NCBI GenBank assembly: GCA_035454685.1
Contig: DATIGN010000085.1
Location: 33,125 to 97,124 of the forward strand
Length of the DNA: 64,000 nt
From: Burkholderiales bacterium
Lineage (GTDB): Bacteria > Pseudomonadota > Gammaproteobacteria > Burkholderiales > SG8-39
Direction: 5' to 3'
Below, piece after piece: positions 36,154-42,874 of this stretch. The notes under the pieces are model-generated. The model saw nothing but the letters and a program-made list of their open reading frames with translations. It ran no database searches and was not told where the DNA came from. How positions within the stretch are numbered: the stretch's first letter is position 1; each line of letters starts with the position of its first letter. A program made the position numbers and the translations under genes.

Positions 36154-37848
36154 GTGAACAAGCCCGTAGAGCTCGCAACCCTGACTGGCGCGGAAGCCGT
36201 CGTGCACATGCTGCGTGCCCATGGCGTCGACACGATCTTCGGTCTGTGCGGCGATACCAGCCTGCCGTTTTACGACGCGCTCGCCCGCTCGGCGTTCATC
36301 AGGCATGTGCTGACCCGGGATGAACGGCATGCCGCATATATGGCCGACGGCTATTCGCGCGTGAGCGGCAGGGTCGGCGTGTGCGAGGGTCCGTCGGGCG
36401 GCGGCGCGACCTACATCCTTCCGGGGCTGGTGGAGGCCAACGAATCTTCGATCCCCATTCTGGCCATCAATACCGATGTTTCAGTTTCCTCCCGGGGGAA
36501 ATTCACGCTGACGGAGCTCGACCAGCGCGCATTGATGAAGCCGCTGACGAAATGGAATGCGGTGCTCGACCGTTCGGCCGACATCCCGCGCGTGATGCGC
36601 AAGGCGTTCGAGGCCATGACCACCGGCCGTCCCGGCACCGCGCATATCGCGCTGCCGTTCGACGTGCAGGACGGACCCGTGGACCGCAACGATGTGTGGG
36701 CTGATCCGACACTGGGTAGTTTCCCTTCCAGGAGAGTCGGGCCCGATGCTTCCCTCGTGGAACTGGCGGCTAGGCTGTTGCGGAAAGCCAAGCAGCCGCT
36801 CTTCATCTGCGGCGGCGGGGTGGTGCTCTCCGGTGCCGAAGGTGAATTGGCCACTCTGGCGGAAAACCTCTCTGCACCGGTCGCCACGACCATCAGCGGT
36901 AAGGGCTCGATCGACGAGCGCTGTGCGCACTCGGTCGGCGTGGTGGGCTCGAATGGCGGCACGCCAGAGACGCGAGCTGTCGTCGATGCCGCAGACGTGA
37001 TCGTGTTCGTGGGCTGCCGTGCCGGCTCGGTCACCACCGAGCGCTGGCGCCACCCACAGGCAGGAAAGGCGAGGATCATCCACATCGATGTGGACCCGGC
37101 GGTGCCGGGTACCAACTACAAGGTCGACGTCCCCCTCATTGGCGATGCTCGCCTATGCCTTTCGGCATTGATCGACGCGTTGGATGGCCACAAGCGGGAA
37201 GCGGACCTTTCGTTCGTAGATCACCACAAACGAACCAAATTCGAGAAGTTCGAAGCGCTCGCACGCTCCGATGACCAGCCGATCAGGCCCGAACGGGTCG
37301 TTTTCGAGCTGCAGAAGAATCTCGATCGCGATGCGATCGTGGTGGCTGATCCCGGCACGCCTTGCCCCTATCTCTCCGCCTACTATGTCGTTAAGGGTAC
37401 CGGGCGCCGCTACTTCTCCAACCGCGCGCACGGCGCGCTCGGCTATGCGCTCGCGGCCGCGATCGGCGCGCACGTGGCGCGGCCGCAGGTGAAGACGGTG
37501 GCCGTAATGGGCGACGGCAGCTTCGGCATGTGCGTCGGCGAGCTCGAGACCGCGGTTCGGCTGAAGCTCCCGGTCACCTTCATCGTGATCGCCAACGCGG
37601 TCTACGGCTGGATCAAGGCGGGACAGAAATCGGGCTACCAGCGGCGCTATTTCTCGGTGGATTTCGGCGTCACGGACCATGCGAAGGTCGCAGACGCATT
37701 CGGCGTGAAGAGCTGGCGGGTTTTCGAACCCGGCAAACTGGGTTCCGCGCTGAAAAGCGCGCTCTCGCACGACGGTCCCTCCTTGGTGGACATCGGCTGC
37801 CAGCCGCTGCACGAGGCCAATGCCCCGGTCTCGGAGTGGGTCGCATGA
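36154..37848 (+). CDS. thiamine diphosphate-dependent enzyme (acetolactate synthase large subunit-like)
   Basis: 564 aa. N-terminal Pyr domain LTGAEAVVHMLRAHGVDTIFGLCGDT...GPSGGGATY, middle domain, and the ThDP motif GDGSFGMCVGELETAVRLKLPVTFIVIAN. GTG start. Confidence 0.9.
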   Translation: MNKPVELATLTGAEAVVHMLRAHGVDTIFGLCGDTSLPFYDALARSAFIRHVLTRDERHAAYMADGYSRVSGRVGVCEGPSGGGATYILPGLVEANESSIPILAINTDVSVSSRGKFTLTELDQRALMKPLTKWNAVLDRSADIPRVMRKAFEAMTTGRPGTAHIALPFDVQDGPVDRNDVWADPTLGSFPSRRVGPDASLVELAARLLRKAKQPLFICGGGVVLSGAEGELATLAENLSAPVATTISGKGSIDERCAHSVGVVGSNGGTPETRAVVDAADVIVFVGCRAGSVTTERWRHPQAGKARIIHIDVDPAVPGTNYKVDVPLIGDARLCLSALIDALDGHKREADLSFVDHHKRTKFEKFEALARSDDQPIRPERVVFELQKNLDRDAIVVADPGTPCPYLSAYYVVKGTGRRYFSNRAHGALGYALAAAIGAHVARPQVKTVAVMGDGSFGMCVGELETAVRLKLPVTFIVIANAVYGWIKAGQKSGYQRRYFSVDFGVTDHAKVADAFGVKSWRVFEPGKLGSALKSALSHDGPSLVDIGCQPLHEANAPVSEWVA

Positions 37849-38447
37849 TCGAGAGAAGCCATCACGACGTGGGCGGACTGCCCGGCGGCCGCGTAGAGCC
37901 CACCGAGCACGACTACGCTGATTGGGAGCGGCGCATCGACGCAATGGCGGTGCTGCTGTGGGGCATCAAGGGAACGAGGAAGCTGCTGACTGTGGACGAG
38001 CACCGCCGCGCGATCGAATTGCTGCCGCCGCAGATGTACGACTCGATGACGTATTACGAGAAGTGGATCTTCGCGCTCGCGCAGTGTCTGATCGCCCGCG
38101 GCGTGATCACGAGCGAGGAGCTCGCCCGCAAGATGGCCGGTGTCGTCGGTCCGAGAATGCACCACGACATGGGCGGTCTGCAAGCGGGGGAGGTGGATCC
38201 GAGCGAGCACGACTATGCTGCATGGGAGCGGCGGATCGACGCGCTGTCGGTGATTCTGGGACGCAACGCGAAGGTCACCGTGGACGAGCGGCGCAAGGCG
38301 ATAGAGTCGCTGCCTCCCGACGCCTACGACAAGATGGGCTATTACGAACGATGGACCGCGGCGCTTGCGCACACGTTGCTTCAGCGGGGGATGATTACTA
38401 CCGAGGAGCTCGCGCGCAAGATGGCCGAAATTCAGGGCCGAGAATGA
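37845..38447 (+). CDS. nitrile hydratase beta-subunit N-terminal domain protein, tandemly duplicated (two copies in one polypeptide)
   Basis: Track ORF 37530-38447 trimmed to ATG 37845 (ATGA overlap with the ThDP gene). Residues 1-104 and 105-200 both read HHD[VM]GGL...EHDYA.WERRID...TVDE.R.AIE.LPP..YD.M.YYE.W..ALA..L..RG.IT.EELARKMA, matching the N-terminal half of NHase beta (MxGxHDxGG start, WE.R.FA helix). Confidence 0.8.
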   Translation: MIERSHHDVGGLPGGRVEPTEHDYADWERRIDAMAVLLWGIKGTRKLLTVDEHRRAIELLPPQMYDSMTYYEKWIFALAQCLIARGVITSEELARKMAGVVGPRMHHDMGGLQAGEVDPSEHDYAAWERRIDALSVILGRNAKVTVDERRKAIESLPPDAYDKMGYYERWTAALAHTLLQRGMITTEELARKMAEIQGRE

Positions 38448-41026: not shown

Positions 41027-41772
41027 AGACGATCGATCTCAATTGCGACATGGGCGAGAGCTACGGCGCCTGGCAGATGGGCGCCGACGCCGAGGTGATG
41101 CCGCACATCAGCTCGGCGAACATCGCTTGCGGCTTCCATGGCGGCGATCCGGCGACCATCCGCAAGACGGTTCGCCTCGCCCTCGACCACGGCGTCGCGA
41201 TCGGCGCGCATCCCTCGCTGCCCGACCTCCAGGGCTTCGGCCGCCGGCCGATGAAGATCTCGCCGCAAGAAATGTACGACCTCGTCGTGTACCAAGCGGG
41301 CGCGGTGGAGGCCTTCGCGCGCGCGGCCGGCTCGAGGCTGCATCACATCAAGTGTCACGGCGCGCTCTATAACATGGCGGCGACCGACGAGGCGTTGTCG
41401 GAGGCGATGGTGCGCGCGGCGAAGGACCTGGGCGCGATGCTCTACGTGCTCTCCAACAGCCAGAACTACGAGATCGCGAAGAAGGCGGGCGTGCGCGTGT
41501 GCGGCGAAGTGTTCGCCGACCGCGGCTACTCGGATGACGGCACGCTAGCGCCGCGCGATAGGCCCGGCGGCATGATCGAGGACGCGGGCAAAGCGGTGAA
41601 GCAAGCACTCGGAATGATCGAGGGCGGATACGTCACGAGCCTTTCGGGCAAGCGCGTGCCGGTTACGGCCGACACGCTTTGCCTGCATGGGGACCAACCG
41701 GGAGCCGCAGCATTTGCCGTTGCATTAAGGAAGGCTTTCAAAGAAAGAAACATCTCTGTTGCGGCCCCCTAA
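41023..41772 (+). CDS. pxpA: 5-oxoprolinase subunit A homologue (LamB/YcsF family)
   Basis: MKTIDLNCDMGESYGAW...SSANIACGFHGGDP...GAHPSLPDLQGFGRR...KCHGALYN is the LamB/YcsF signature. ATGA overlap with pxpC. Confidence 0.9.
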   Translation: MKTIDLNCDMGESYGAWQMGADAEVMPHISSANIACGFHGGDPATIRKTVRLALDHGVAIGAHPSLPDLQGFGRRPMKISPQEMYDLVVYQAGAVEAFARAAGSRLHHIKCHGALYNMAATDEALSEAMVRAAKDLGAMLYVLSNSQNYEIAKKAGVRVCGEVFADRGYSDDGTLAPRDRPGGMIEDAGKAVKQALGMIEGGYVTSLSGKRVPVTADTLCLHGDQPGAAAFAVALRKAFKERNISVAAP

Positions 41773-42874
41773 GCTCTTCACCCCGATCGAACTCGGCGGG
41801 GTCACGCTTCCCAACCGCATCGTCGTCTCGCCGATGTGCCAGTACTCGGCGGACGACGGCTCGATGACCGACTGGCATACCGTGCACGTGGGCACCTTCG
41901 CCTGCTCGGGGGCAGGGCTGTTCGTGATCGAGAAGACCGGCGTCACGCGCGAAGGCCGCATCACCCACGGCTGCACCGGCCTCTACAGCGATCACAACGA
42001 GGCGGCGATGGCGCGTGTAGTGCAGGTCTACCGCGGCATCACGAGAAACCCGATCGGCATCCAGCTCGGGCATGCCGGGCGCAAAGCGTCGTCGCATCCG
42101 CCGTTCGCCGGCGGCAGGCCGCTGGGCCCCGAGGAGTCGTCCTGGCGCACGGTCGCGCCCTCGCCGATTCCGTTCGGCGAGGGCTGGCACACGCCGCACG
42201 AGCTGACGAGACAAGAGATCGGAAGGCTGGTCGATGCGTACGTCGCTGCCTCCCTGCGCGCCAAGCGCATCGGCTTCGACGTGCTCGAGCTGCACTCCGC
42301 TCACGGCTACCTGTTGCACCAATTTCTATCTCCATTGAGTAATGCACGAAGAGATCTTTATGGAGATGACCGCATGCGCTTTCCGCTGGAGGTGGCGCGC
42401 GCGGTGCGCGAAACCTGGCCGCGCGACCGCGCGCTCGGCGCGCGCATCAACGCCACCGACTGGGTCGAGGGCGGCTGGCAGCCCGAAGATGCGGTCGCCT
42501 ACGCGCGCGAGCTCAAGCGCGCCGGGTTGGATTTCGTCTGCGTCTCGAGCGGTGCCACCGTGCCGCACGCAAGGATCCCGGTAGCACCGGGGTACCAAGT
42601 GGGTTTTGCAGAACGAGTGAAGAACGAAACCGGAATCAACACCAGGGCCGTCGGAATGATCGCGGACCCCGACCAGGCCGAGGACATCCTCGCCTCCGGT
42701 AAGGCCGACATGGTGGCCATGGCGCGCGCGTTCCTCGACGACCCACGCTGGGTCTGGCACGCGGCCGAGCGCTTCGGGGTAATTATCGACTACCCGCCGC
42801 AGTACGCGCGCAGCCGGCACGACCTGTGGCCGGGCGCACAGCTTGCGCGACCTCGTAGCGTGGGCCGCGGCTGA
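41759..42874 (+). CDS. NADH:flavin oxidoreductase (Old Yellow Enzyme family ene-reductase)
   Basis: 371 aa. LFTPIELGGVTLPNRIVVSPMCQY...HAGRKAS...ELHSAHGYLLHQFLSPLSN is the classic OYE/NamA signature. TTG start overlaps the pxpA end by 14 nt. Confidence 0.9.
   Translation: MRPPKLFTPIELGGVTLPNRIVVSPMCQYSADDGSMTDWHTVHVGTFACSGAGLFVIEKTGVTREGRITHGCTGLYSDHNEAAMARVVQVYRGITRNPIGIQLGHAGRKASSHPPFAGGRPLGPEESSWRTVAPSPIPFGEGWHTPHELTRQEIGRLVDAYVAASLRAKRIGFDVLELHSAHGYLLHQFLSPLSNARRDLYGDDRMRFPLEVARAVRETWPRDRALGARINATDWVEGGWQPEDAVAYARELKRAGLDFVCVSSGATVPHARIPVAPGYQVGFAERVKNETGINTRAVGMIADPDQAEDILASGKADMVAMARAFLDDPRWVWHAAERFGVIIDYPPQYARSRHDLWPGAQLARPRSVGRG

Follow-up and report, generated by a model that had tools for sequence, protein, structure and literature searches.

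We know of no established physiological substrate for most nitrile hydratases (NHases) outside the aldoxime pathway. Classical cobalt-type NHase operons, such as those of Pseudonocardia thermophila, Rhodococcus rhodochrous J1 and Pseudomonas putida, have the gene order beta-alpha-activator and usually also include an amidase gene. In Streptomyces canus CGMCC 13662, the NHase is encoded by AnhD-AnhE-AnhA, in the order betaN, betaC, alpha; this enzyme is of the cobalt type, has no activator gene, and employs AnhD (betaN) as a metal and self-subunit-swapping chaperone in an AnhD2-AnhA heterotrimer (PMC7329996). ToyJKL of Streptomyces rimosus is cited in the same paper as an activator-free, three-polypeptide NHase with a split beta subunit. 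Here we analyze a locus of this type in a 64,000-nucleotide (nt) stretch of contig DATIGN010000085.1 from a Burkholderiales bacterium (hereafter, the window; all coordinates are positions in the whole window unless a related locus is named). The locus is a conserved operon of eight genes in which a predicted cobalt-type NHase with a tandem beta-N chain is joined to homologs of the three 5-oxoprolinase subunits (PxpB, PxpC and PxpA), an Old Yellow Enzyme (OYE) ene-reductase and a thiamine diphosphate (ThDP)-dependent enzyme. A divergent operon encodes a vicinal oxygen chelate (VOC) family protein and an ABC importer. The eight-gene operon looks like an undescribed route for nitrile breakdown.

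The nitrile hydratase and its tandem beta-N chain

The VCTLCSCY segment of the alpha chain aligns with the metal motif of cobalt-type alpha chains. This chain passes the NCBIfam equivalog model for NHase alpha (TIGR01323, 264.6 bits; cut-off, 249.85) but fails the model for the gamma subunit of thiocyanate hydrolase (SCNase; TIGR03887, 229.8 bits; cut-off, 291.45). In comparisons with PDB, the best NHase matches of alpha, all cobalt-type chains, have E-values from 1.6e-73 to 3e-61, compared to 9.8e-52 for the SCNase 2dd4; the corresponding values are 2e-7 and 2.9e-5 for the tandem beta-N protein (betaN2), and 7e-13 and 5.1e-9 for the beta-C polypeptide (betaC). An earlier interpretation made from the DNA letters (hereafter, the sequence-only reading) had recognized a cobalt-type, three-polypeptide enzyme of the NHase family in the order betaN-betaC-alpha, which the metal motif, the TIGR01323 score and the domain order bear out. 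It had also entertained a thiocyanate hydrolase; both the profile scores and the PDB comparison with ScnA, ScnB and ScnC, in which each of the three polypeptides is nearer to NHase chains, contradict this.

The beta subunit is split, and neither betaN2 (127.7 bits) nor betaC (71.4 bits) passes the single-beta model TIGR03888 (cut-off, 152.2). BetaC matches the 2dpp beta chain over residues 139-226 of the latter, and the alignment takes in the HxR..Y.R segment (HIRTPFYIR against HTRFPRYAR in 2dpp_B); the HRRAIE and YYEKW segments of betaN align with FRHSIE...YYEHW of 3qxe_B. In solved NHases, Arg residues of the beta subunit hydrogen-bond the oxidized cysteines, and Tyr and Trp residues line the active-site pocket. 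Active-site Arg and Tyr/Trp residues of this kind are found in both betaN repeats and in betaC; in betaN2, R54, Y70, Y71 and W74 of repeat 1 and R149/R150, Y166, Y167 and W170 of repeat 2 are invariant in 13 sequences.

No activator was found among the eight operon products, the VOC protein or the importer proteins (the accessory model TIGR03889 gave only 16.6-30 bits on the betaN repeats, with a cut-off of 46), and Pfam and NCBIfam searches detected no amidase-signature or aliphatic amidase gene within the operon. The remark of the sequence-only reading that the operon carries neither gene is therefore correct, but the missing activator, to which it had drawn attention, is the norm for three-subunit NHases and is to be expected because these enzymes use betaN as a chaperone (PMC7329996). 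Thus, the locus has the features of a three-polypeptide NHase: the order betaN-betaC-alpha, a split beta subunit and no separate activator. Judging from its sequence, the enzyme is a cobalt-type three-polypeptide member of the NHase family, and very probably a functional one. A single classical amidase was seen in the window, an amidase-signature enzyme encoded at 7295-8725 on the minus strand, 28 kb from the operon.

The betaN2 protein consists of two repeats (residues 1-102 and 103-200), which, taken separately, score 64.1 and 67.9 bits on TIGR03888. The possibility that one of the repeats is a fused activator was considered and ruled out by comparing these scores with those on the accessory model (16.6 and 18.8 bits). 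Tandem betaN proteins of about 200 aa form more than 120 metagenomic clusters at 90% identity. Among the relatives retrieved from 1.84 billion representative proteins, single beta-N proteins of about 100-130 aa predominated; distant tandem forms were few (P0249, P0258, P0302 and P0328), and in some of these the key residues have been lost from one repeat. Among the related loci described below, L010-L013 encode a single beta-N; that of L010 combines a repeat-1-like body with a repeat-2-like tail, as after recombination between the repeats. Two further arrangements were observed. In L015 (4943-5573), each of the two beta-N domains has its own open reading frame (ORF), and the two ORFs are in different frames. 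In L014 (10001-10852), beta-N and alpha share one frame without a stop codon and there is no beta-C gene, a betaN-alpha fusion that is represented as well by the called 283-aa protein P0244. As far as we found, the tandem betaN architecture is rare and previously undescribed, a variation on a known theme.

A single-chain AlphaFold model of betaN2 (predicted local distance difference test score [pLDDT], 57; predicted template modeling score, 0.42) does not resolve the relative placement of the two repeats. By analogy with AnhD2-AnhA, the betaN polypeptide would act as a self-subunit-swapping and metal chaperone within a betaN2-alpha complex, such that no separate activator would be needed. One tandem chain per alpha would then reproduce, in a single polypeptide, the stoichiometry of two betaN per alpha in the chaperone complex. 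Alternatively, a single tandem chain could bridge the halves of an alpha2 assembly and serve both of its active sites.

Structure and conservation of the operon

Eight ORFs, in frame and all on the plus strand, occupy positions 36154-42874, as the sequence-only reading had placed them (ORF table; Table 1). The junctions described in that reading match the DNA base by base: there are ATGA overlaps at 37845-48, 38444-47, 38728-31 and 41023-26, a GTGA overlap at 40052-55, a 14-nt overlap of pxpA with the OYE gene (TTGCGGCCCCCTAA, 41759-72), and a 17-nt gap between the alpha gene and pxpB (GACTTTCGGGGGGCTGC, 39328-44) that includes GGGGGG. The domain content assigned to all eight genes was likewise reproduced by Pfam and NCBIfam searches, with one amendment: the two NHase beta N-domains are real but reside in a single 200-aa polypeptide, the product of one gene. 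With this refinement, there are three NHase polypeptides and four beta-type domains. The start codons at 36154 (GTG), 39345 (TTG) and 41759 (TTG) are the earliest of the respective ORFs; should pxpB in fact begin further downstream, the gap of 17 nt would widen somewhat. A promoter and terminator scan, otherwise uninformative, found no terminator-like or promoter-like site on the plus strand inside the operon, and no riboswitch or small RNA was detected upstream of it.

In a scan of one genome per species, relatives of the tandem beta-N protein were encoded at 40 loci, all in metagenome-assembled genomes (MAGs). The close loci are nearly all labeled Burkholderiales or Betaproteobacteria and come mostly from soil MAGs; one 2.7-kb contig identical to the window was binned as Gemmatimonadales. 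For the close clade, defined by alpha chains that are 75-96% identical, gene content was determined by tblastn with the window proteins. In this clade, the pxpB-pxpC-pxpA genes are located downstream of alpha in all 12 loci with enough downstream DNA, the OYE gene comes next in 11 of 11, and the ThDP enzyme gene is immediately upstream of beta-N in 13 of 16. The VOC gene is found beside the NHase genes in 14 related loci, and the binding-protein gene of the importer in 9. Independent MAG contigs with proteins that are 70-96% identical share the gene order and, with slight differences, the overlaps; the 4-nt overlaps are repeated, as is the 14-nt overlap of pxpA with the OYE gene (10 of the 11 related loci tabulated). 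Separate gene calls on further metagenome contigs yielded the same 14-gene unit, comprising the operon and the divergent VOC-importer genes, within differing flanks (MerB/MerC, cupin/BON, and small PIN or pilin-like inserts).

In contrast, pxp and OYE genes were found in none of about 20 more distant split-NHase loci (Rubrobacteraceae and other Actinomycetota; alpha 51-63% identical), and the split NHases on cultured Streptomyces and Agrobacterium plasmids adjoin an aquaporin and cobalt transporters. Therefore, the linkage is specific to the clade and not due to chance. The operon is real and conserved, and the combination of a split-beta NHase with pxpBCA, OYE and ThDP enzyme genes, which the sequence-only reading had singled out at one locus, recurs across the clade. 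A tblastn search with betaN2, VOC, ThDP enzyme, OYE and PxpC revealed no copy of the cluster in 72,556 plasmids and chromids. Neighbor clustering in the distant Rubrobacteraceae-type split-NHase loci was abandoned, the neighbors being mostly spurious ORFs in high-GC DNA and housekeeping genes.

Some related loci depart from this pattern. L008 and L009 are two contigs of one MAG (MFD02840.bin.2.96), each with a copy of the cluster, and the binding-protein gene is present on only one of them. In L007, L008 and L009, genes for small membrane proteins are inserted between the ThDP enzyme and beta-N genes; L007 and L009 have an extra gene of this kind also between pxpA and the OYE gene, and the L008 contig stops within pxpA.

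The divergent importer operon, partner enzymes and a proposed pathway

Upstream of the NHase operon and divergent from it are the genes for the VOC protein, a periplasmic substrate-binding protein and four LivHMGF-like importer components (Table 1). The ATG of the binding-protein gene at 35065 overlaps the VOC stop codon (ATGA), and this divergent, translationally coupled operon belongs to the same unit as the NHase operon. It did not figure in the sequence-only reading and is the best available clue to the substrate. The intergenic stretch between the VOC and ThDP enzyme genes (35932-36153) contains about 200 bp of extra DNA, common only to L010. In L002, L004, L007, L014 and L015, the divergent start codons of the two genes are only about 20 bp apart, so that the promoters must lie within coding sequence in these loci. 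A near-palindrome, CCCTAATATAAGGG, directly precedes the GTG start of the ThDP enzyme gene; the intergenic inverted repeats are weak.

Table 1. Genes of the NHase operon and the divergent VOC-importer operon, with positions in the window
Product	Position	Strand	Length	Start codon	Profile match and remarks
ThDP enzyme	36154-37848	+	564 aa	GTG	TPP_enzyme_N/M/C (Pfam)
Tandem NHase beta-N protein (betaN2)	37845-38447	+	200 aa		NHase_beta_N, two stretches (Pfam)
NHase beta-C (SH3-like) polypeptide (betaC)	38444-38731	+	95 aa		NHase_beta_C, E=1.8e-21 (Pfam)
NHase alpha, cobalt-type by its VCTLCSCY motif	38728-39327	+	199 aa		NHase_alpha, E=4.6e-82 (Pfam)
PxpB-type subunit	39345-40055	+		TTG	CT_C_D (Pfam)
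PxpC-type subunit	40052-41026	+		GTG	CT_A_B (Pfam)
PxpA-type subunit, LamB/YcsF family	41023-41772	+			LamB_YcsF (Pfam)
Class III (YqjM/XenA-like) OYE ene-reductase	41759-42874	+		TTG	Oxidored_FMN, E=2.3e-57 (Pfam)
VOC (Glyoxalase_3) metalloenzyme-like protein, first gene of the divergent operon	35062-35931	-			Glyoxalase_3, E=6.6e-31 (Pfam)
Periplasmic substrate-binding protein, benzoate-derivative-binding family	33881-35065	-			Peripla_BP_6 (Pfam)
LivH-like permease	33001-33819	-			BPD_transp_2 (Pfam)
LivM-like permease	31987-32973	-			BPD_transp_2 (Pfam)
LivG-like ABC ATPase	31269-32018	-			ABC_tran and BCA_ABC_TP_C (Pfam); kept in related contigs
LivF-like ABC ATPase, last importer gene	30584-31276	-			ABC_tran (Pfam); kept in related contigs

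The closest solved relatives of the binding protein are the Rhodopseudomonas palustris proteins 4ey3 (E=1e-115), 4f06 (6.5e-98) and 4evs, that is, RPA0985 (2.4e-95), aligned over residues 16-383. The ligands in 4ey3 and 4f06 are presumably benzoate derivatives. The full-length, high similarity places the protein in the RPA0985/RPD1586 group of Liv-type binders of benzoate derivatives, and its alignment with the characterized binders is well conserved. RPA0985 is strongly stabilized by 4-hydroxybenzoate (PMC3223731). No other protein of the unit is as conserved as the binding protein, which is 82-92% identical in related loci. Elsewhere in the window, there are genes for a VanA-like Rieske oxygenase, an FAD-dependent aromatic hydroxylase and several TctC receptors, a gene content that fits an aromatic-degrading, Burkholderiales-like organism. 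Together, the kinship with the R. palustris binders, the conservation of the binding protein and the aromatic genes in the window favor a benzoate-like substrate: the predicted entry compound is an aromatic or heteroaromatic nitrile that resembles benzoate, or the corresponding amide or acid. For the NHase itself, an aromatic or heteroaromatic nitrile is proposed as the substrate only tentatively.

In the N-terminal half of the VOC protein, His and Glu residues follow the usual pattern, and many positions of the protein are invariant among relatives. Its AlphaFold2 model (pLDDT 62), which matches 3p8a and HPPD/HMS in Foldseek with template modeling scores of about 0.5, suggests, at low confidence, a generic two-domain VOC fold.

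All three subunit families of 5-oxoprolinase (LamB/YcsF, CT_C_D and CT_A_B) are represented in the operon, and the subunits are complete. PxpB and PxpA exceed the cut-offs of their NCBIfam models (164.7 bits on TIGR00370, cut-off 145.55; and 336 on the subfamily model NF003814, cut-off 226, respectively). PxpC exceeds that of the domain model TIGR00724 (282; cut-off, 230) but not that of the PxpC equivalog (261.9; cut-off, 500); it is 41% identical to E. coli PxpC and 41-47% identical to bona fide PxpC proteins. The nearest PDB entries to PxpA are 1v6t, 2dfa and 1xw8 (YbgL).

PMCxY and His-x-x-His-x-Tyr are the catalytic motifs of OYEs. The OYE of the operon retains SPMCQY and HSAHGY, which together with the Oxidored_FMN domain assign it to class III, and its nearest PDB relatives are 5ocs, 3hf3, a Thermus chromate reductase/OYE, XenA and YqjM. 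The ThDP enzyme scores below the cut-off of all 25 NCBIfam models listed (at best 417.7 bits, against 866). Its best PDB matches are BbmA, acetolactate synthase and glyoxylate carboligase, with CsmA also among the top matches, and it belongs to the acetolactate synthase-like superfamily.

In L011, an FmdA/AmdA (acetamidase/formamidase) gene (8247-9980) is located directly upstream of the single-domain beta-N gene; there is no VOC or ThDP enzyme gene within 10 kb, and the contig ends after alpha. On an Alloyangia pacifica plasmid (L046, 9995-13457), a VOC gene (38% identical) is found beside genes for a GntR regulator, a ThDP enzyme (34%) and a tripartite tricarboxylate transporter (TTT). This hints that VOC and ThDP enzyme genes may form an older module, but the pair is too distant to interpret.

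The eight genes, the VOC gene and the importer genes probably serve one pathway. On balance, we lean towards viewing the two divergent, translationally coupled operons as a single unit of 14 genes that serves catabolism or nitrogen scavenging in uncultured soil Burkholderiales. The scheme proposed here starts from the observed family assignments and conserved linkage; each of its catalytic steps is what we infer from these. The Liv-type ABC importer would take up a nitrile-bearing, benzoate-like compound (aromatic or heteroaromatic and acid-like), as suggested by homology. The NHase, composed of alpha, betaC and tandem betaN-betaN and assigned to its family by sequence, would hydrate the C≡N group to a carboxamide. 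PxpBCA would act in place of an amidase, as an ATP-dependent amidohydrolase that either opens a lactam containing the amide or arising from it, or hydrolyzes the amide directly, with release of NH3. The OYE would saturate an activated C=C bond (in an enone, enamide or unsaturated lactam), and the ThDP enzyme would decarboxylate or cleave the resulting 2-oxo acid or 1,2-dicarbonyl. As the last of the proposed steps, the VOC metalloenzyme would contribute an isomerization or ring cleavage. The route via an amide or lactam and a 2-oxo intermediate that the sequence-only reading had suggested is plausible. That PxpBCA acts on the NHase product or its cyclized form is nearly balanced in our estimate, with doubt slightly the stronger. 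In a chemically attractive variant, an unsaturated lactam ring would be reduced by the ene-reductase and then opened in an ATP-dependent reaction; anaerobic nicotinate catabolism, where reduction of 6-hydroxynicotinate is followed by enamidase, offers an analogue. The most specific version of the scheme would be a new nitrile-to-acid route in which ATP-driven PxpBCA replaces the amidase and acts on the amide or on a lactam that arises once a heteroaromatic or unsaturated ring (for example, of a cyano-pyridone or a compound of the hydroxybenzonitrile type) has been ene-reduced, and in which tandem betaN is a covalent form of the two-chaperones-per-alpha complex, that is, a built-in self-subunit-swapping chaperone. 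In this complete form, we consider the proposal somewhat unlikely.

Several observations weigh against a dedicated nitrile pathway. All relatives of the locus are MAG or metagenome contigs, no regulator or riboswitch was found that would point to an inducer, and the structure models of the VOC protein and betaN2 are of low confidence (pLDDT 62 and 57). Judged by the profile scores, PxpBCA may simply be a true 5-oxoprolinase: PxpB and PxpA pass their models, and the similarity of PxpC to its E. coli namesake (41%) is that of ordinary orthologs. The ThDP enzyme is dispensable in some relatives, its place being taken by an acyl-CoA dehydrogenase in L012 and L013 and by the FmdA/AmdA amidase in L011. 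Homologs of this enzyme that are 56-62% identical occur in Ruegeria, Cupriavidus and Variovorax in unrelated GntR/racemase/TTT contexts. Thus, the ThDP enzyme is the least fixed member of the unit. The Pxp scores and the replaceable ThDP enzyme gene are compatible with a mosaic of co-transcribed modules that have no substrate in common, namely, an NHase for general nitrile detoxification, an ordinary 5-oxoprolinase and an OYE that, like the broad-specificity class III ene-reductases it resembles, reduces electrophiles in general. We judge such a mosaic unlikely. In 11-12 loci, at 70-96% identity, the genes keep their order and the overlaps of 4 and 14 nt, the linkage is missing from the other split-NHase lineages sampled, and the unit stays intact while its flanks vary. 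If, on the other hand, PxpBCA is a true 5-oxoprolinase that works within the NHase pathway, the nitrile might be a gamma-glutamyl compound or glutamine analogue that yields 5-oxoproline, such as a conjugate of the gamma-glutamyl-beta-cyanoalanine type or a cyano precursor of 2-oxoglutaramate or glutamine that cyclizes. Glutamine and 2-oxoglutaramate do cyclize to lactams, the Pxp subunits look orthodox, and the importer belongs to the Liv (amino-acid/amide) superfamily. Nevertheless, this route appears quite improbable: the binding protein groups with binders of aromatic acids rather than amino acids, the unit encodes no gamma-glutamyl-cyclotransferase, transpeptidase or aminotransferase, and the OYE, ThDP enzyme and VOC protein would be left without a role.

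Two further alternatives are suggested by the architecture of the NHase. An enzyme similar to thiocyanate hydrolase, with SCN- or a related small pseudohalide as its substrate, would fit the three-polypeptide organization and the gene order, which are those of scnB-scnA-scnC, and alpha does gain 229.8 bits on the SCNase gamma model. However, this score is below the cut-off while that for NHase alpha is exceeded, the three chains are nearer to NHases than to 2dd4 A/B/C, and the locus encodes carbon-skeleton enzymes as partners and no proteins for sulfur oxidation or carbonyl sulfide handling, which makes this reading the least credible of those considered. Only marginally more credible is a biosynthetic role, in which, as in the conversion of toyocamycin to sangivamycin by ToyJKL, the NHase would form a carboxamide in a natural product built with the ThDP carboligase and the OYE. 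The best-known three-subunit NHase, ToyJKL, is indeed biosynthetic, as cited in PMC7329996, and BbmA and CsmA are among the top PDB matches of the ThDP enzyme. Here, however, the genes are coupled to ABC-type uptake through a periplasmic binding protein; the unit includes no synthetase, polyketide synthase, nonribosomal peptide synthetase, exporter or resistance gene, and is surrounded by catabolic and storage genes.

At this locus, an NHase is fixed in a conserved operon alongside an importer of its own and four other enzyme activities, which makes the natural substrate directly testable. Should PxpBCA process the NHase product, the NHase/amidase pair would have an ATP-dependent counterpart, and the reactions known for the 5-oxoprolinase family would become more varied. 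The tandem betaN, with active-site residues in both repeats, is a natural experiment on activator-free assembly and cobalt loading, and could be useful for engineering activator-free industrial NHases. The new nitrile-to-acid route, if true, would uncover both a class of natural NHase substrates in soil and an NHase quaternary structure of a new type. Soil metagenomes contain the family widely (the >120 clusters at 90% identity mentioned above), and the cultured genomes and plasmids searched lack it; it thus represents an unstudied part of soil nitrogen and xenobiotic metabolism.

The DNA downstream of the operon has features of its own. A 325-aa ORF (42783-43760, minus strand) is convergent with the OYE gene, with an overlap of 92 nt; as it lacks Pfam matches and its GC content by codon position is atypical, it may not be a genuine gene. 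About 10 kb of the window (42.9-52.7 kb) is missing between the OYE and HSP33 genes in the syntenic loci L041 and L042. A tRNA-like gene is located at the edge of this segment (43804-43877, minus strand; Rfam tRNA, 47.8 bits), with an anticodon that ARAGORN leaves unnamed ('cc' at position 34), and the segment may be an insertion at this tRNA-like site. Within the segment, a DUF302 protein (45082-45522, plus strand) is 42.5% identical to a DUF302 protein (L044, 9135-9566) that adjoins a split NHase, aquaporin and CbtAB on the Agrobacterium plasmid pAt1; the resemblance may be a coincidence, as the gene is not kept beside the operon in other relatives. DUF2063 and MbnB/TglH/ChrH (DUF692) genes lie side by side at 49078-50338 (minus strand), a pair typical of systems that modify ribosomally synthesized and post-translationally modified peptides (methanobactin- or bufferin-like).

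Comparison with known systems

Among the described enzymes, AnhDEA shares with the window locus the gene order, the split beta subunit, the cobalt type and the lack of an activator, but has one betaN domain per chain, whereas betaN of the window is tandem. The alpha chain of the window is 59.9% identical to the split-type alpha of a Streptomyces plasmid (L045), where the NHase genes adjoin an aquaporin and a cobalt transporter rather than pxpBCA, OYE, ThDP enzyme, VOC or importer genes. The likeness to ToyJKL is one of architecture: ToyJKL serves biosynthesis, has a nucleoside nitrile as its substrate and belongs to the toy cluster, in contrast to the apparently catabolic window locus with its importer and tandem betaN. 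ScnABC of Thiobacillus thioparus (2dd4) also comprises three polypeptides with homologous chains and a cobalt Cys-cluster center, but the window alpha passes the NHase alpha model and fails that of SCNase gamma, and the locus has no sulfur-metabolism context.

Compared to the classical cobalt-type NHases, the alpha chain is close (phmmer E-values from 3e-61 to 2e-73), VCTLCSCY is identical and the beta Arg and Tyr residues are kept, whereas the beta subunit is split, its N-domain is doubled, activator and amidase are lacking, and PxpBCA occupies the position that one would expect an amidase to hold. PxpABC (YbgJKL in E. coli; KipI/KipA/YcsF in B. subtilis) consists of subunits from these three families, but in the window the order is B-C-A, the genes are inside an NHase operon, and PxpC falls short of the equivalog cut-off (261.9, below 500); the substrate of PxpBCA may be another lactam or amide. 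Full-text searches of a literature library found no paper that links an NHase with PxpABC/oxoprolinase, nor with OYE/thiamine/benzonitrile; on three-subunit NHases, only the S. canus paper proved relevant. The sequence-only reading could match the gene set to no characterized pathway, and this holds, as we found no paper or annotated plasmid that contains it. The three-polypeptide cobalt NHase type is already known; the tandem beta-N and the conserved operon partners are, as far as we found, new, and in these respects the locus differs from all described systems.

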